Notes under the pieces: generated by a model
Databases searched by the model: none
What the model saw: the letters and a program-made list of their open reading frames with translations, nothing else
What the model was told of the DNA's origin: nothing
Shown: positions 1 through 24,782 of the stretch, piece by piece
Position numbering within the stretch: position 1 is the first letter of the stretch
Layout of the letters: each line of letters starts with the position of its first letter
Position numbers and translations under genes: made by a program
Assembly: GCA_041623375.1 (NCBI GenBank)
Contig: JBFJXA010000001.1
Span: 1-56,286, forward strand
DNA: 56,286 nucleotides
Origin: Gammaproteobacteria bacterium
Lineage (GTDB): Bacteria; Pseudomonadota; Gammaproteobacteria; Steroidobacterales; Rariloculaceae
Reading direction: 5' to 3'

Positions 1-593
<593 letters not shown>

Positions 594-667
594 TACCTTT
601 TCGATGACACACGCATTTTTAACAAGACTTCGCGCCTCATGCGACGATCGCCAGACCGGATGAACTC

Positions 668-1276
668 ATGAAGCTCTACCATTATTCCAAAAGTCGCTCG
701 ACTCGCGTGCTCTGGCTGCTCGAGGAGCTCGGCCTCGACTATGAGGCCGAGATGCTGCCGTTCGACGCGCGCGCGTTTCACCTCCCTGATCATCTGGAAG
801 TCGAGTCATACGGAAAGCTGCCGATTCTCGTCGATGGCGCCTCGTCGATGAGCGAGTCGATCGCGATCGTGACGTATATTCTGGATCGCTACGGCGAAGG
901 CCGGCTCGAGCCCGATCGTGCATCGGCCGAATATGGCACTTTTCTCGAGTGGATTCAGTTCGGCGAGCGCTCGCTCATGGATCCGTTGTCGTTGCTCGTG
1001 CAGCATACGGCGCTGCTTCCCGAGGCTGAGCGGGATCGCGAGGCGGCTGACAAGGCTCGGCGCGTATTCAAGCATTTCGTAAGGTCGATCGACGAAGCGC
1101 TGGAAGGCCGGGACTATCTAATGGGCGACGATTTCTCGGCCGCGGACATCGTCGTCGGTTATGCGCTGTTCATCGCCGAGGAGTTCGGCGTCTTCCCGCG
1201 TGGTCTTGACAACGTGCGCGCCTACTACGACCGGCTCAGCGAGCGTCAGGCGTTCAAGGCCGCCACGGCCGAGTAG
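668..1276 (+). CDS. Glutathione S-transferase family protein
   Basis: 202-aa ORF. It has an N-terminal thioredoxin-like GST fold signature (MKLYHY..S.STRVLWLLEELGLDYE, KLPILVDG..MSESIAI) and a C-terminal alpha domain. GC3 is high. Confidence 0.85.
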   Translation: MKLYHYSKSRSTRVLWLLEELGLDYEAEMLPFDARAFHLPDHLEVESYGKLPILVDGASSMSESIAIVTYILDRYGEGRLEPDRASAEYGTFLEWIQFGERSLMDPLSLLVQHTALLPEAERDREAADKARRVFKHFVRSIDEALEGRDYLMGDDFSAADIVVGYALFIAEEFGVFPRGLDNVRAYYDRLSERQAFKAATAE

Positions 1277-1281
1277 AGGAG

Positions 1282-1591
1282 TGGTGGGCCCGGTAGGACT
1301 CGAACCTACGACCAAGGGATTCACTCGGCCCCGCCGTTTCCGGCGGGAGTGGACTATCTCTTCACCCGCAACGGCACGCTGCTAGGGTGCGGGACGCTCG
1401 ATGCCTGTCATTAAGAGCGCTGAAGCTCTCAGGTAGTCTCTGCACCTTCCGGCGGTGTACCGCCGGCTTGGCTCAGGGTTGCCGGCTCGTGCGCTACGGT
1501 TCCCCTGAATTCATCCCGTCCACTTCGCGCCTTTCGACGCGAAGGCACCTTTCGATGAGTCCCCTGCTCTAACCAACTGAGCTACAGGCCC
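1282..1591 (-). tRNA. tRNA-Ile(CAU) (ileX-like, lysidine type) gene split by an intron. Exon 1 = 1591..1555, exon 2 = 1321..1282, CCA encoded
   Basis: Minus-strand exon 1 is GGGCCUGUAGCUCAGUUGGUUAGAGCAGGGGACUCAU. Exon 2 is AAUCCCUUGGUCGUAGGUUCGAGUCCUACCGGGCCCACCA. Joined, they give a 77-nt cloverleaf. Acceptor stem is GGGCCUG/CGGGCCC, D stem GCUC/GAGC and anticodon stem GGGGA/UCCCU. The anticodon loop is CUCAUAA and the T arm is GUAGG-UUCGAGU-CCUAC. The body resembles E. coli tRNA-Ile2 (..GAGCAGGCGACUCAUAAUCGCUUGGUC..) more than elongator tRNA-Met. Confidence 0.85.
1322..1554 (-). ncRNA. Group I self-splicing intron (Azoarcus tRNA-Ile / IC3-like) inserted between tRNA positions 36 and 37
   Basis: 233 nt on the minus strand with the following elements. 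It starts CGAAAG-GUG, and GUG can pair with the exon CAU to give the U.G splice-site pair (P1). P2 is CUUCGCGUC-GAAA-GGCGCGAAG. P4 candidates are UCAGGG/CCCUGA. P6 is CCGGCGG-UACA-CCGCCGG. The core string GAGCCAAGC...GGAAGGUGCAGAGACUA closely resembles the Azoarcus core as I recall it. P7 is GGUGC/GCACC and P9 is CCCGCCG-GAAA-CGGCGGG. The terminal G (omega-G) lies directly before exon 2. Confidence 0.82.
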
Positions 1592-19248: not shown

Positions 19249-19695
19249 TCAGCCTGCGTTGACTCGAATCCGCCGCGGCAGCGTTTTCTCCTGTTTCGGA
19301 ATCGAGATCTCGAGCACGCCGTTCTTGTACTCGGCCGCGATATTCTCGGCATCGGCGGTCTCGGGCAGCGCGAAGCGTCGGTAGAACCGCCCACTGAGAC
19401 GCTCGGTGCGGTGCCAGCCGTCGCGCTCCGCCTCCGCCGTCGTCTCCCTGTGCCCGTGAATGCACAATGCGCCGCCATCCATCGTGATTTCCAGGTCGTC
19501 AGCGGCTACGCCGGGCACGTCGGCACGAATCAGGAACCGCTCCTCCTCTTCCCTGATGTCGACGGCAGGCCGCCAGTTGCCGAGGTCGCTGGTGTCGTCC
19601 TCGTGTTGGGCGAGCAGGTGAGCCGGAAAGATTCGATCGACGTCGCGGTGGAGTCTATCCACCAGGCTCCAAGGGTTATAGCGAATCGTGTTCAT
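19249..19695 (-). CDS. Small heat-shock protein, Hsp20/IbpA family
   Basis: 148 aa with an alpha-crystallin domain (W.P.VDI.E....F.I.ADVPGV...DLEI....G.L.I.G.R, F.RRF.LP......I.A.Y.NGVLEI.IPK). GGAGG lies 10 nt upstream of the ATG. Confidence 0.92.
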   Translation of the reverse strand: MNTIRYNPWSLVDRLHRDVDRIFPAHLLAQHEDDTSDLGNWRPAVDIREEEERFLIRADVPGVAADDLEITMDGGALCIHGHRETTAEAERDGWHRTERLSGRFYRRFALPETADAENIAAEYKNGVLEISIPKQEKTLPRRIRVNAG

Positions 19696-19742
19696 GATCG
19701 TGCGACCTCCTGAGTAGGTTCGTGATGTCTGATAGGCAACAA

Positions 19743-19769
19743 CGTTGGGGCTACCCCGGCGATTTCAAG
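19743..19769 (-). promoter_or_regulatory. Putative sigma-32 (RpoH) heat-shock promoter for hsp20
   Basis: The minus strand reads CTTGAA-ATCGCCGGGGTAG-CCCCAACGT. This is -35 CTTGAA, a 13-nt spacer and -10 CCCCAnnnT, against the E. coli consensus CTTGAA-N13-17-CCCCATNTA. It lies about 48 nt upstream of the hsp20 ATG. Confidence 0.55.
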
Positions 19770-19836
19770 TCGGCGTGAGACACACAAATCTGTGGGTTGC
19801 CTGTGGATAAGCAGGGCAAGCCATGGGGACAACGAG

Positions 19837-19852
19837 ACACAATATATAGTGG
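19837..19852. promoter_or_regulatory. NrdR-box-like palindrome ACACAATATATAGTGG
   Basis: It matches 15/16 positions of the NrdR box consensus as I recall it (acaCwAtATaTwGtgt). It lies upstream of the class II RNR genes. Confidence 0.5.
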
Positions 19853-19927
19853 TTGGCAGAAATCGAAGGAGATTCTGCAAGGCGCAAAAAATATTTCGAG
19901 TGAATTTCACGAAGATTTGTTAACTAA

Positions 19928-19943
19928 TTGTTATATATAACAA
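19928..19943. promoter_or_regulatory. Perfect 16-bp AT-rich palindrome TTGTTATATATAACAA (a possible degenerate NrdR box or other operator)
   Basis: It is an exact palindrome and shares only the TATATATA centre with the NrdR consensus. It lies about 40 bp upstream of the candidate -35. Confidence 0.3.
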
Positions 19944-19973
19944 TATCCCCTATACGTGATTCGCAACTGGGTC

Positions 19974-20002
19974 TTGACACTGGGCACCGAGCGTCCTAGT
20001 CT
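19974..20002 (+). promoter_or_regulatory. Candidate sigma-70 promoter for nrdJab (TTGACA-N17-TAGTCT)
   Basis: A perfect -35 hexamer, a 17-nt spacer and a moderate -10. The prediction is by sequence only. Confidence 0.35.
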
Positions 20003-20014
20003 ACGAAGGTCACG

Positions 20015-20030
20015 ATACAACATCTTGTGT
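20015..20030. promoter_or_regulatory. NrdR-box-like palindrome ATACAACATCTTGTGT, just downstream of the candidate -10
   Basis: The reverse complement ACACAAGATGTTGTAT matches the outer ACAC..GT.T arms of the NrdR consensus. Its position overlapping the predicted start site would suit a repressor. Confidence 0.4.
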
Positions 20031-20186
20031 CATGACTTTTTGCTAGAAATAACCAAAACGGGTAGCGCCAGGCGAGCCCGACGGGGAGGTACTGCGCTCA
20101 ATAACTCTAATCGACGGGCAGTTTTGCCGGAAGGATCCGTGGATCTTGAGCCGCGGGAACGAGCTGAAGGGGGGCACGTAGCGAAC

Positions 20187-22334
20187 ATGAAAAACGCGCT
20201 TGAACTGAAAGCGACGAAAGTTTCAGAGTTACCTCTGCAGGAGGCGTCTCTGAGCATCTGGGACACCAAGTATCGGCTCAAGAGCAAATCCGGCGAACCC
20301 GTCGACAAGGACATCCAGGGGACTTACGAGCGTGTCGCCGAAGCGCTCGTGTCCGTCGAGGACCCGGTCAAGAAAGATTACTGGCACGAGCGCTTCGTTT
20401 GGGCGCTGCAGCGCGGTGCGATTCCGGCGGGCCGTATCATGTCGAACGCCGGTGCCGAGGCGCACAAGCCGGCGACGTCGACGATCAACTGTACGGTATC
20501 CGGCACCGTCAACGACTCGATGCACGATATTCTCGAGAAGGTCCATGAGGCCGGGTTGACGCTCAAGGCCGGCTGCGGAATCGGCTATGAGTTTTCGACA
20601 TTGCGCCCACGCGGCGCCTACGTCTCGGGCGCCGGCGCGCACACGTCGGGACCGCTGTCGTTCATGGATATCTATGACAAGATGTGCTTTACCGTGTCCT
20701 CGGCAGGCGGTCGCCGCGGCGCACAAATGGGCACGTTCGATATCGGCCATCCCGACGCCATGGAGTTCATTCGCGCCAAGCGGGAGGACGGCCGGCTGCG
20801 AAATTTCAATCTTTCGTTGCTCATCACCGACGAGTTCATGCAGGCCGTCAAGGCAGGCGCCGACTGGCCGCTGGCGTTTCCGTTGCGCCAGCGCGAGGCC
20901 CATGAGGACGGCATCGATCTCGAAGACCCCGAGCAGGTGGTCTGGCGGGAGTGGCCCACTCGACGCGGCTACATCTGCAACGACAACGGCCTCGTCGCGT
21001 GTCGGATCTACAAGGCAATCCCGGCACGGCGCATGTGGGACGTGATCATGTCCTCGACCTACGACTTCGCCGAGCCGGGCTTTGTGCTCATCGATCGTGT
21101 CAATGAGCTCAACAACAATTGGTGGTGCGAGAACATTCGCGCTACGAATCCCTGCGGGGAGCAGCCGTTGCCGGCTTACGGCGCTTGCCTGCTCGGATCG
21201 ATCAATCTGACGAAATTCGTGATCGAGCCGTTCACGGACGATGCGCATTTCGACTGGGAAGAGTTTCGCGAGGTCGTGCGCGTGTTCACGCGCATGCTCG
21301 ACAACGTCGTGGAGATCAACGGTCTGCCGCTCGACGAGCAACGCGCGGAGATCCTGCGCAAGCGGCGTCACGGCATGGGCTTTCTGGGCCTCGGCTCGGC
21401 GATCACGTTGCTCGGCATGCGCTATGGCGAGCCCGACTCCGTGCGCTTCACCGAGGACGTCGCCAGAGAGCTCGCGATCGCGGGCTGGCAGATGGGGCTC
21501 GAGCTTGCGAGGGAAAAAGGTCCCGCGCCGATTCTCACCGAGACCTTTACCGTGACCGAAGAGATGCTGCGCAAGCGACCGGAGATGCGTGCGGACGGCT
21601 GGAAGGCCGGCGACAGTATCCCGGGCCGCACGCTGCATTCGAGATACAGCCGATACATGCAGCGTCTGGCCGGCGTTGCGCCGAAGCTAGTCGATCAGCT
21701 TGCCGAGGAGGGGTCGCGTTTTACGCATCACAGCTCGATCGCTCCAACGGGTACGATCGCTCTGTCGTTGGCGAACAACGCTTCCAACGGGATCGAGCCG
21801 TCTTTCGCGCATCACTATTTTCGAAACGTCATTCAGGAAGGCAAGAAGACCAAGGAAAAGGTCGACGTCTATTCGTTCGAGCTGCTGGCCTATCGCGAGC
21901 TCGTCAACCCCCGGGCATGTCCCGACAGCGACGAGCCCGGCGAGGCGCTGCCCGGCTACTTCGTGAGCTCGGAGGACATTACGCCGAAAGCGCACGTCGA
22001 CATTCAAGCAGCCGCGCAGATTTGGGTCGATTCGTCGATTTCGAAGACGGCAAACGTACCGACGAACTATCCCTACGGCGATTTCAAGAACATTTACTTA
22101 TATGCCCACGAGAAAGGCCTCAAGGGTTGCACGACCTTCCGTTTCAATCCGGAGGCTTTCCAGGGCGTGCTCGTGAAGGAGAAAGATCTCAAGAACACGA
22201 CGTATCGTTTCACGCTCGACGACGGCAGCGTCGTCGAGGCCAAGGGTGACGACGAGATCGAGTACGACGGGGAGACGCACAGCGCCGCGAATCTATTCGA
22301 TGCGCTCAAGGAAGGTTATTACGGGAAATTGTGA
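20187..22334 (+). CDS. nrdJ: Adenosylcobalamin-dependent ribonucleotide reductase, large N-terminal polypeptide (NrdJa of a split class II RNR)
   Basis: MKNALELK...LSIWDTKYRLK...TYERVAEAL and INCTVSG (the expected class II context), plus NPCGEQPL (the conserved RNR thiyl-radical Cys loop) and SSIAPTGT. The start is ATG 20187. The ORF-track start 19956 runs through AT-rich non-coding-looking DNA. The gene ends at TGA 22332-22334. Confidence 0.9.
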   Translation: MKNALELKATKVSELPLQEASLSIWDTKYRLKSKSGEPVDKDIQGTYERVAEALVSVEDPVKKDYWHERFVWALQRGAIPAGRIMSNAGAEAHKPATSTINCTVSGTVNDSMHDILEKVHEAGLTLKAGCGIGYEFSTLRPRGAYVSGAGAHTSGPLSFMDIYDKMCFTVSSAGGRRGAQMGTFDIGHPDAMEFIRAKREDGRLRNFNLSLLITDEFMQAVKAGADWPLAFPLRQREAHEDGIDLEDPEQVVWREWPTRRGYICNDNGLVACRIYKAIPARRMWDVIMSSTYDFAEPGFVLIDRVNELNNNWWCENIRATNPCGEQPLPAYGACLLGSINLTKFVIEPFTDDAHFDWEEFREVVRVFTRMLDNVVEINGLPLDEQRAEILRKRRHGMGFLGLGSAITLLGMRYGEPDSVRFTEDVARELAIAGWQMGLELAREKGPAPILTETFTVTEEMLRKRPEMRADGWKAGDSIPGRTLHSRYSRYMQRLAGVAPKLVDQLAEEGSRFTHHSSIAPTGTIALSLANNASNGIEPSFAHHYFRNVIQEGKKTKEKVDVYSFELLAYRELVNPRACPDSDEPGEALPGYFVSSEDITPKAHVDIQAAAQIWVDSSISKTANVPTNYPYGDFKNIYLYAHEKGLKGCTTFRFNPEAFQGVLVKEKDLKNTTYRFTLDDGSVVEAKGDDEIEYDGETHSAANLFDALKEGYYGKL

Positions 22335-22397
22335 GTCGATGACATCAAGGAAGAAACCGAGTGGCCGAAGGGAGGCGAGCCGCCGTACGGCGGCGCT

Positions 22398-23219
22398 GTG
22401 GCAGATCGAGGGGTCGTCCTCGAGATGGATAGAGGCACTGCGATCGACGATAACGGCAGGCGCCCGCCGAGCGATCGCACCGAGACACTTGAAGAGATAG
22501 CGCAGATGGCACGTATAAAAATGCAAGGCAAGATTGTCGAGTACAGCGTTGCCGTTGACGAGGCCGATAGCGCCTCGGAGCCGGCTGCGGCGACCGTCGT
22601 GGAAGCACAGGCCGAAGAGCCGAAAGTCATTCGGATGCACGAGAAACTCGAGCGTCCGGAAATGCTCATCGGCTCGACGTACAAGGTCAAAACGCCGGTG
22701 TCGGATCATGCGATGTATGTGACGATCAACGACATCCTGCTCAACGAAGGCACGCCGCACGAGCAGCGCCGGCCGTTCGAGATCTTCATCAATTCGAAGA
22801 ATCTCGATCACTATCAATGGATCGTGGCGTTGACGCGCATCATGTCGGCGGTCTTCCGCAAGGGCGGAGACGTCACGTTCCTCGTCGACGAGCTCAAGGC
22901 CGTGTTCGATCCGCGTGGCGGATACTGGCAGCCGGGCGGTAAGTTCATGCCATCGATCATTGCCGAGCTGGGTCATATCGTGGAAAAGCACCTCGTGCAG
23001 ATCGGGCTGCTGAAGCCGCTGAGTCTTAGCGAGGACCACGAGGGCTTTCTTGCAGACAAGCGTGCGGAGTTCGAGGCCCGTGGCGGTCAGCAGGATGCCT
23101 TCGCCGAACAGAACTTTCCCGAGGGCGCACAGCTTTGCGGCAAATGCAGCACCGCCGCTGCCGTCATGCTCGACGGCTGTATGACTTGCTTGAATTGCGG
23201 TTACTCGAAGTGCGGCTGA
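22398..23219 (+). CDS. nrdJ: Class II ribonucleotide reductase C-terminal polypeptide (NrdJb; TSCPD-like domain plus a Cys-rich tail)
   Basis: ERPEMLIGSTYKVKTP....MYVTINDI........PFEIFINSKN..H.QW..ALTR..SA..R.G is the conserved C-terminal RNR/TSCPD segment. The C-terminal CGKCS....MLDGCMTCLNCGYSKCG is the redox/zinc tail. The gene is in the same frame as nrdJa. Start candidates are GTG 22398, ATG 22425, ATG 22506 and ATG 22521. Confidence 0.85.
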   Translation: MADRGVVLEMDRGTAIDDNGRRPPSDRTETLEEIAQMARIKMQGKIVEYSVAVDEADSASEPAAATVVEAQAEEPKVIRMHEKLERPEMLIGSTYKVKTPVSDHAMYVTINDILLNEGTPHEQRRPFEIFINSKNLDHYQWIVALTRIMSAVFRKGGDVTFLVDELKAVFDPRGGYWQPGGKFMPSIIAELGHIVEKHLVQIGLLKPLSLSEDHEGFLADKRAEFEARGGQQDAFAEQNFPEGAQLCGKCSTAAAVMLDGCMTCLNCGYSKCG

Positions 23220-23273
23220 TGCCTGGGCACTAAAACGCCGGCTAGGCCGACGCGTACATACCAGTCCGCCGTT

Positions 23274-23317
23274 GGTCCGCTCCTTAGATCAGTCATGATC
23301 GGGGGCGGACCTTTTTT
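23274..23317 (+). terminator. Rho-independent terminator candidate after nrdJb
   Basis: GGTCCGC...(24-nt loop)...GCGGACC is followed by TTTTTT. An alternative 5' arm, GTCCGCC at 23264, can pair with the same 3' arm. Confidence 0.5.
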
Positions 23318-23360
23318 ATCCGGTTTGAGTAGCCCGAAAACGCGCTAGAATTAAGCTCTT

Positions 23361-24782
23361 GTGACGCTCACCATTCCGGACTTTACGACGCTCAGGGTTC
23401 TCGTCGCCGGCGATGCCATGCTCGACGAGTATTGGTTCGGCTCGACGGACAGGATCTCGCCTGAGGCGCCCGTACCGGTCGTCAAGACACAAGAGATCGA
23501 GCAACGGCCCGGCGGCGCGGCAAACGTTGCGCTGAATCTCGCCACACTGGGTGCGCACGTCAGTCTCGCTGCGTGTATCGGCGCCGATTTGCGCGGCGAG
23601 GCGCTCACCGAGCTCCTGAGCGCCGGCGGTGTCGATTGCCGCTTTCTGCAATCGGCCGACAAACCGACCATTCACAAGCTACGCGTGCTGTCGCGCAATC
23701 AGCAACTCATCCGGCTCGACTTCGAGGAGTCGTTGAGCAACGACGGCTCGGCATTCGCAGCGCACTTCGCCCCGTTGGTCGAGGCAGCTGACTTAGTCGT
23801 TCTCTCGGATTACGGCAAGGGGACGCTCAGTGAAGTCCAGGCACTGATCGAATGCTGCAGGCGCAGCGCTCGGCGTGTGCTCGTGGATCCGAAGGGCACC
23901 GACTTCGAGCGCTACCGCGGCGCGACGCTGATCACACCGAATCGCAACGAGTTCGAGGCCGTTGCGGGCGCATGGCAGACGGAGAGTGAGTTTGAAGCGC
24001 TCGGCCAGGCGATGCGCGATACCCTCGAGCTCGAGGCGCTGCTCGTGACCCGGGGTGGCGAAGGCATGACACTGTTCACGAGTGGCGAGCCGCCCGTCAC
24101 GCTCGCTGCCGAAAGCCGAGAGGTGTTCGACGTGACGGGCGCCGGCGATACGGTCATCGCACTGATGGCCGCGGGGCTCGGTTGCGGTCTCGCACCCGAA
24201 TCTGCGGCAGCGCTCGCGAATCTGGGCGCAGGGCTCGTCGTCGGCAAGATCGGTGTCGCAAACGTGCGCCCGGCCGAGTTACGGCTAGCACTCCACCGCC
24301 GCGGCACGGGCGGGCGCGGTCTCGTCAATGCGCAAGCGCTCGAGGCGCTCGTCGCGCAAGCGCGCGCGCGGGGCGAGCGCATCGTCATGACGAATGGCTG
24401 TTTCGATATCCTGCACGCCGGGCACGTTGCGTATCTCGAAGAAGCCAAGACGCTCGGTGATCGCCTTATCGTCGCCGTCAACGACGACGACTCCGTCGAG
24501 CGCCTGAAGGGCCGCGGTCGGCCCGTTACCCCGCTCGAGGACCGAATGGCCGTGCTGTCCGGTCTCGCAGCCGTCGACTGGGTCGTGGCGTTCAGCGAGG
24601 ATACGCCCGCTGATCTGATCGACCGATTACTGCCGGATGTGCTGGTCAAAGGCGGTGACTACCGCGCTGAGCAGGTCGTCGGTGCGAAGGCCGTAATCGC
24701 CAACGGCGGCGAAGTTCGCATACTGGCGTTTCGCGAGGGCCGCTCGACGACGGCTGTGATCGAGGCGATCCGCAACGGCTAG
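23361..24782 (+). CDS. hldE: Bifunctional D-beta-D-heptose 7-phosphate kinase / D-beta-D-heptose 1-phosphate adenylyltransferase
   Basis: GTG start. The N-terminal pfkB-type kinase domain has VLV.GD.MLD.YW.G...RISPEAPVPVV and DVTGAGDTV. The C-terminal cytidylyltransferase domain has TNGCFDILHAGHV.YL. Length is 473 aa. Confidence 0.95.
   Translation: MTLTIPDFTTLRVLVAGDAMLDEYWFGSTDRISPEAPVPVVKTQEIEQRPGGAANVALNLATLGAHVSLAACIGADLRGEALTELLSAGGVDCRFLQSADKPTIHKLRVLSRNQQLIRLDFEESLSNDGSAFAAHFAPLVEAADLVVLSDYGKGTLSEVQALIECCRRSARRVLVDPKGTDFERYRGATLITPNRNEFEAVAGAWQTESEFEALGQAMRDTLELEALLVTRGGEGMTLFTSGEPPVTLAAESREVFDVTGAGDTVIALMAAGLGCGLAPESAAALANLGAGLVVGKIGVANVRPAELRLALHRRGTGGRGLVNAQALEALVAQARARGERIVMTNGCFDILHAGHVAYLEEAKTLGDRLIVAVNDDDSVERLKGRGRPVTPLEDRMAVLSGLAAVDWVVAFSEDTPADLIDRLLPDVLVKGGDYRAEQVVGAKAVIANGGEVRILAFREGRSTTAVIEAIRNG

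Follow-up and report, generated by a model that had tools for sequence, protein, structure and literature searches.

To our knowledge, only one split ribonucleotide reductase (RNR) has been found in cellular organisms, the class II enzyme made as two polypeptides, NrdJa and NrdJb (NrdJa+b). Among phages, the RNR gene of Aeromonas phage Aeh1 is divided by a free-standing homing endonuclease gene, giving the order nrdA-a/mobE/nrdA-b; small open reading frames (ORFs) that are translationally coupled to their neighbours, through termination and reinitiation, occur between the cistrons of bacterial operons; and gene 38 of phage T4 is initiated from a Shine-Dalgarno (SD) sequence that a hairpin bridges to the start codon. 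NrdJa+b is a monophyletic subclass that is defined by the split (PMC5704485); in Pseudomonas aeruginosa the two proteins contain 734 and 229 residues, and it is for this species alone that biochemistry has established an active (NrdJa-NrdJb)2 enzyme formed from separate polypeptides (PMC4520616). Phage RNR 'genes in pieces' that carry a free-standing homing endonuclease have been summarised elsewhere (PMC3653736). The locus described here is an nrdJab operon in a stretch of 56,286 nucleotides (nt) from a gammaproteobacterium of the Rariloculaceae (contig JBFJXA010000001.1 of assembly GCA_041623375.1), which we refer to as the window, and its subject is the gap between the two halves of the split gene.

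Judged by its domains, gene order and split site, the locus encodes an ordinary class II RNR of the NrdJa+NrdJb kind, in which the split is ancient. It shares with the P. aeruginosa system (Torrents 2005; Crona 2015, PMC4520616; Loderer 2017, PMC5704485), for which the comparison was drawn from the literature, adjacent genes on the same strand, the same split site, a NrdJa of ~715-734 residues and a TSCPD/cysteine-rich NrdJb of ~229-237 residues, both systems being gammaproteobacterial. It differs in that the clade of the window has a conserved 53-codon gene between the halves; the gap is 171 nt in the window, whereas relatives have a median gap of 39 nt (range -10 to 937 nt over 100 loci). 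Comparison of the homologous gaps argues that this one is neither an untranslated spacer nor a continuation of NrdJ, and that it encodes, in the +1 frame, a 53-residue Arg-rich microprotein; we give this explanation as a whole a probability of about 0.8. The features on which it rests are as follows.

22339-22500, forward strand: the conserved small ORF, MTSRKKPSGRREASRRTAALWQIEGSSSRWIEALRSTITAGARRAIAPRHLKR, of 53 codons plus TAG (22498-22500), in the +1 frame relative to nrdJa and nrdJb
20187-22334, forward strand: nrdJa, catalytic subunit of a split class II (adenosylcobalamin-dependent; AdoCbl) RNR, 715 residues plus TGA, from Pfam, NCBIfam and the length of orthologues
22332-22334, forward strand: TGA, the stop codon of nrdJa and conserved terminus of NrdJa; a stop occupies this residue in 81 of 100 related loci
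22506-23219, forward strand: nrdJb, separate subunit carrying the TSCPD/cysteine-rich C-terminal domain, 237 residues plus TGA, starting MARIKMQGKIVEY
22491-22497, forward strand: GAAGAGA, a purine-rich SD-like stretch for nrdJb, which is also the last codons of the small ORF (L-K-R)

The comparisons drew on 40 relatives from the same genus, family and order and on 80 loci from GTDB species genomes (Woeseiaceae, Ca. Rariloculaceae, Steroidobacteraceae and unclassified gammaproteobacterial metagenome-assembled genomes, MAGs), which together gave 100 unique loci with both genes present. The closest relative found (L114) encodes a NrdJa and a NrdJb that are 91% and 88% identical to those of the window, and three further loci (L003, L004 and L005) belong to the window's own genus. 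The small ORF was found by listing the ORFs of all long spacers; it is separated from the nrdJa stop by 4 nt and from the nrdJb ATG by 5 nt, and homologous ORFs of 51-58 codons fill the related gaps. There are 24 distinct homologues, all at the nrdJa-nrdJb junction (at L118 the contig ends before nrdJb), and they belong to one clade, of three genera in a gammaproteobacterial family that is Woeseiales-like. The peptide of the window is Arg-rich and basic, and the family shares the motif [FL]W-x6-S[RK]W[LIV]-x2-[LV][RK], in which W21 and W30 are invariant.

The small ORF carries the signature of a protein-coding sequence. Its frame is open in all 24 unique homologues, whereas the other two frames are open in none and in three of them, respectively. 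Over ten phylogenetically independent pairs, differences at codon positions 1, 2 and 3 numbered 81, 97 and 155, respectively (chi-square p=1.2e-6), and the pooled ratio of nonsynonymous to synonymous differences (pN/pS) was 0.37, with nine of the ten pairs below 1. Conserved Arg residues are encoded by AGA, CGG, CGT and CGA, and conserved Leu residues are also encoded by multiple synonymous codons. Between the window and its closest relative, the ratio of nonsynonymous to synonymous substitution rates (dN/dS) was 0.33 for the small ORF, compared with 0.06 for nrdJa and 0.07 for nrdJb.

The family is confined to this locus. A hidden Markov model (HMM) profile, run against 1.84 billion representative proteins, yielded about nine genuine clusters, whose members are 51-55 residues long, and in the three clusters that we looked up independent metagenome gene calls show the order NrdJa-small ORF-NrdJb with gaps of 2-5 nt, and give a layout of 715, 53 and 235 residues separated by 4 and 2 nt. 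Two further matches of the profile, the repeat proteins P0002 and P0011, were set aside as artefacts of low complexity. When 401 genomes of the order were searched in six frames, 18 strong matches (E <= 1e-13) emerged, one per genome and in three genera, all of which adjoin nrdJa; 17 lie between nrdJa and nrdJb, and the remaining one, L118, is cut by the contig end. The 12 weak matches that were checked are all located elsewhere. Searches of Pfam, NCBIfam and the PDB with the small ORF gave no credible relative, an Rfam scan of 19400-23500 with E up to 1 found nothing, a promoter and terminator scan of the gap showed no promoter-like or terminator-like site, and a literature search yielded no mention of such a gene between nrdJa and nrdJb. 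On the strength of these searches, the small gene is one that has not been described before, and it gives the nrdJab operon a previously unannotated form that only a few uncultured genera possess.

Some members of the family depart from the layout in the window. In one genus (g14; L070, L074 and L117-L120) the small ORF starts with a TTG that overlaps the nrdJa TGA, as TTGA, rather than with an ATG 4 nt downstream, and has a differing N-terminus, LKAK..NRHRPYGELQQGKPVFW. L058 (gap 429 nt), L066 (gap 256 nt) and L125 contain ~80-260 nt of inserted sequence after the nrdJa stop, ahead of the small ORF; they have lost the tight coupling at the 5' end but still have 3 nt between the small ORF and nrdJb. 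The nrdJa-nrdJb gap of L028 (G037:C3) is 412 nt long, part of which is masked as N. In another family, a 48-codon ORF (MADDYKAALARSRRNTSNLGSRTRGNWLQGLRGAF...) fills the spacer of L014 (1354-1524), again of 171 nt; the small-ORF profile gave marginal scores only against the long spacers of L014, L089, L096 and L110, the best being for L014 (E=0.023 among 111 sequences), and the ORF of L014 may have arisen independently or may be a homologue that has diverged very far.

The spacing between the three genes is tight at both ends. The small ORF starts 3-5 nt past the nrdJa stop in 14/24 loci (+4 in 11, +3 in one and +5 in two) and overlaps that stop as TTGA in 7/24, and at the other end the distance from its own stop to the nrdJb start is -1 to +5 nt in 21/23; abutting or overlapping cistrons are thus found in 21/24 loci at the start and in 21/23 at the stop. 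The sequence TTGAAGAGATA[AG]C is conserved in loci of the same genus, and purine-rich stretches lie 5-12 nt before the nrdJb start in other small-ORF loci. Because this geometry is typical of translationally coupled cistrons, we infer a coupled chain running from nrdJa through the small ORF to nrdJb. The three genes would be co-transcribed, and ribosomes ending at the nrdJa UGA would restart 4 nt downstream, at AUG 22339; in translating the small ORF they would melt the GC-rich hairpin that can form in this region (see below) and would stop at UAG 22498-22500, and nrdJb would then be initiated 5 nt on, at AUG 22506, aided by GAAGAGA doubling as an SD sequence. The likeness to coupled intercistronic small ORFs lies in the start, 4 nt past the upstream stop (or TTGA in the one genus), and in the closeness of the stop to the next start; the difference from a pure relay ORF, as far as coupling deduced from spacing allows one to draw it, is that the peptide is itself conserved, with its two invariant tryptophans and a pN/pS below 1.

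The product of the small ORF is likely to be a translationally coupled microprotein. The peptide itself might also have a role, for example in binding NrdJa and NrdJb or in tuning the output of NrdJb. We offer tentatively, and as something rather less probable than its absence, that in this clade the split reductase has a functional third component in the 53-residue product, either a microprotein that binds NrdJa/NrdJb and acts in their association or in thiol exchange, or a regulatory nascent peptide that tunes the stoichiometry of NrdJb to NrdJa. In the latter case, a nascent peptide built around the two invariant tryptophans may set the number of ribosomes that reach nrdJb. Such a component would have no described precedent among class II RNRs, either as an accessory subunit or as a leader-type regulator.

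The genes on either side are readily identified. The product of nrdJa contains the RNR all-alpha and barrel domains (Pfam Ribonuc_red_lgN, PF00317, and Ribonuc_red_lgC, PF02867), scores 552 bits against TIGR02504 (AdoCbl-dependent NrdJ; cut-off 399.95) and has T. maritima NrdJ (1xje, 2.8e-58) as its nearest PDB entry. The called orthologues of L111 and L113 are 715 residues long, and the ORF that opens at GTG 19956 is therefore too long by 77 codons; ATG 20187, which is preceded by GAAGGGGGG, is by this comparison the real start of nrdJa. The 230 nt upstream of it (19956-20186) would be a leader or control region rather than nrdJa coding sequence. The product of nrdJb contains the Pfam domain TSCPD (PF12637) and ends in a cysteine-rich tail, CGKCSTAAAVMLDGCMTCLNCGYSKCG. 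A separate nrdJb ORF is present in 41/41 relatives, in all of which homology to NrdJb sets in at residues 53-60 of the query translated from beyond the TGA, that is, at ATG 22506, with the conserved N-terminus M[AST]RIK[IV].KKIV.Y; over the 100 loci, an ATG or GTG stands at the homologous codon in 70, and in most of the others the alignment begins 3-4 residues later. Against the profile of unsplit NrdJ (NF006417), NrdJa spans positions 5-582 and NrdJb positions 584-759, and the break therefore falls between the barrel and the C-terminal domain, outside the conserved core. The locus thus shows the RNR domains, the separate, downstream, adjacent and co-oriented TSCPD gene and the split site that are specific to NrdJa+b, and the two separate polypeptides that the sequence-only reading had thought plausible are borne out.

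The split itself is conserved. NrdJa ends in ...KEGYYGK[LF]-stop across the 100 related loci, and as ...EGYYGKL in the window, where GAAGGTTATTACGGGAAATTG directly precedes the TGA. The stop falls no more than 12 codons away in the 19 loci that do not have it at exactly the same residue, and TGA, TAG and TAA are all used (74, 16 and 10 loci, respectively). Since the split is universal in these loci and the stop lies at a conserved residue, the split is ancient.

The sequence-only reading had treated nrdJa and nrdJb as one ORF interrupted by a single nonsense codon, and had read an SD sequence, a hairpin and a GTG as the possible reinitiation site of nrdJb. The observation behind the first claim is correct: translated in a single frame, 19956-23219 contains TGA 22332-22334 as its sole internal stop, the next being at 23217-23219, and the frame beyond the TGA reads VDDIKEETEWPKGGEPPYGGAVADRG... 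on into the TSCPD/cysteine-rich segment; GTG 22398 lies in the same frame as 19956 (both 0 mod 3). The interpretation does not hold. The genes are split in 100/100 relatives, and nrdJb is in the same frame as nrdJa in 36 of these and in the other two frames in 39 and 25; about one-third would be expected by chance, and on these numbers the frame relation is random. The nrdJa frame remained free of stops over the 57 spacer codons in 3351 of 20000 shuffles of the spacer (17%). The codons after the TGA had been said to look coding by their GC content at third positions (GC3), which is 0.70 in the nrdJa frame and 0.70 in the +1 frame, against 0.76-0.79 in the flanking genes, and so does not tell the frames apart. 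The shared stop-free frame is, from these comparisons, a coincidence in this genome. The three elements of the second claim do lie where they had been placed.

22368-22375, forward strand: AAGGGAGG, the proposed SD sequence, which by codon alignment lies within small-ORF codons G-R-R-E and is not conserved
22379-22394, forward strand: the 16-nt palindrome GCCGCCGTACGGCGGC, within small-ORF codons 14-19 (S-R-R-T-A-A)
22398-22400, forward strand: GTG, the proposed start of nrdJb, which overlaps small-ORF codons L20-W21 (CTG TGG) and is not a conserved start

Three explanations would keep the shared frame meaningful. Partial readthrough of the UGA would give some fused NrdJ of ~1010 residues, counted from the nrdJa start, and in the window genome the frame is indeed open from the TGA to nrdJb. 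That frame is open, however, in only 3 of the 24 homologous spacers, the window being among the three. The nearest relatives close it, by a TGA inside the gap in L114 (where nrdJa itself ends in TAG), by a second stop each in L003 and L004, and by a frameshift in L005; nrdJb is in another frame in 64 of the 100 relatives; TAA and TAG, besides TGA, end nrdJa in relatives; and the codons in question show no coding constraint, the period-3 signal sitting in the +1 frame. The relatives thus have neither the conserved in-frame layout nor the downstream constraint expected of recoding, and readthrough is extremely unlikely. A recent nonsense mutation, or a sequencing or assembly error, in an unsplit nrdJ has nothing in its favour beyond the shared frame; it is scarcely credible in view of the conserved position of the stop, the lack of any unsplit form among the 41 relatives searched, and the fact that the split defines the whole subclass (PMC5704485). 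The remaining proposal, that the hairpin at 22379-22394 brings AAGGGAGG near GTG 22398 and so yields an N-extended NrdJb of 273 residues in the manner of T4 gene 38, has the right geometry, with an SD-like octamer 22 nt from an in-frame GTG and a perfect palindrome between them that forms a 6-bp hairpin in the minimum free energy (MFE) structure. The difference from the T4 gene is that neither a conserved start nor a continuous frame is found in orthologues and that the small ORF, which is conserved and read in another frame, contains all three elements. The frame from the GTG position is closed before nrdJb in L114 and L003, L004 has no GTG there and L005 is frameshifted; of the octamer, AGGGAG is kept only in L114, its equivalents being absent from L003, L004 and L005; and the N-terminal extension has no homology in relatives. 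The sequence-only reading had itself named an NrdJb N-terminus at ATG 22506 as evidence against its proposal, and it is there that NrdJb homology begins in essentially all relatives. Nor is the 121-nt hairpin region exceptionally stable (z = -1.59); folding was equally good or better in 10 of 200 shuffles. The stem is retained in L114, where it encodes SRR.AA, and is shifted in L003, and the palindrome is probably a by-product of Arg and Ala codons. We therefore regard initiation of this kind as very unlikely.

Two further explanations accept the split and dispute the microprotein. The gap could be non-coding, its conservation being that of an RNA or DNA element such as a structured stretch between the cistrons that controls nrdJb, and its open +1 frame incidental: long open frames do arise by chance in short GC-rich spacers, the base composition at the codon positions of the small ORF is atypical (see below), and a stable hairpin is found in the window, L114 and L004, where the homologous 51 nt fold with an MFE of -19 to -21 kcal/mol. 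In more distant homologues, however, the same 51 nt have an MFE of -8 to -17 kcal/mol and no comparable hairpin, and Rfam found nothing; a non-coding element also leaves unexplained the one open frame, the excess of third-position differences with a pN/pS of 0.37, the synonymous codons at conserved Arg and Leu, and the start and stop pinned beside the neighbouring genes. We consider it distinctly unlikely. Alternatively, the small ORF could be the decayed remnant of a mobile element, such as a free-standing homing endonuclease, that has been kept as a ribosome relay to nrdJb while its peptide is functionless. Such an element appears to have entered the junction elsewhere: in L094, a Steroidobacteraceae MAG, a 304-residue ORF (541-1452, forward strand) with three helix-turn-helix (HTH) modules and an HNH nuclease motif lies exactly at the nrdJa/nrdJb junction, overlaps the end of nrdJa by 14 nt and is single-copy in its genome, while L084 (1280-1495) and L095 (1260-1460) retain an N-terminal remnant of it (56% identical, one internal TGA) and a C-terminal one (71% identical). 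This series has the appearance of a free-standing homing endonuclease that invaded the split site and then decayed there. The tight coupling geometry of the small ORF, its dispensability and its low-confidence, mostly disordered predicted structure would also fit a relic. On the other side, the small-ORF profile has no detectable similarity to the endonuclease in any frame (hhalign probability 0.2%; six-frame hmmsearch E >= 0.39), the loci that bear the endonuclease belong to a different clade, and the two invariant Trp and the pN/pS value point to constraint on the peptide sequence and not merely on an open frame; we judge a relic unlikely.

As in phage Aeh1, an RNR catalytic gene exists as two separately translated pieces with a gene between them, and in L094, L084 and L095 that gene, or what is left of it, is an HNH endonuclease at the exact junction. 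The window differs in that its gap holds only the 53-residue ORF, with no Pfam match and no endonuclease, and in that the split is cellular and ancient rather than a recent phage event. In a tree of 96 loci built from the NrdJa tail and NrdJb, a single clade of 15 members (support 95) takes in all small-ORF loci, and the other four members of the clade (L015, L022, L041 and L060) show deletion remnants, such as ...INRHRPHG... in L022 and ...FWKYRQQENQD in L041. The simplest history of the microprotein gene would be one gain in the ancestor of the three genera, several losses thereafter, and moderate purifying selection since.

Several points weigh against a microprotein gene in the gap. Having been lost in four clade members, the small ORF is dispensable, and purifying selection on it is only moderate, one of the ten pairs having a dN/dS of 1.56. 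Equally long open frames occur in 17-80% of shuffles of these GC-rich spacers, and for this reason we rejected ORF length as evidence, so that the coding case rests on the comparative signal; the loci on which that signal was measured were ascertained in part through a search for proteins from open frames. The GC content at codon positions 1, 2 and 3 is 0.49, 0.70 and 0.70 in the small ORF, as against 0.60, 0.43 and 0.79 in nrdJa, and is atypical for the genome; there is no strong SD sequence upstream of AUG 22339; and AlphaFold2 models the small protein, in which it places a single helix (residues 27-45), with low confidence (mean predicted local distance difference test score, pLDDT, 59.6). 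In addition, rare UGA readthrough, or an occasional N-extended NrdJb from GTG 22398, may occur in this one genome.

For the nrdJab operon, these results mean that there is nothing unusual about a split nrdJ that has an in-frame TGA, and they remove a false lead towards readthrough or hairpin-bridged initiation. What they put in its place, a lineage-specific microprotein gene that appears to be under selection at the exact break point of a split RNR, is of modest interest in itself. Taken together with the endonuclease gene in another family, it shows the nrdJa/nrdJb junction to be a recurrent site of gene insertion. The study of the P. aeruginosa enzyme (PMC4520616) raised the questions of how the split originated and of what benefit or regulation it brings, and the genes at the junction would provide a concrete handle on both.

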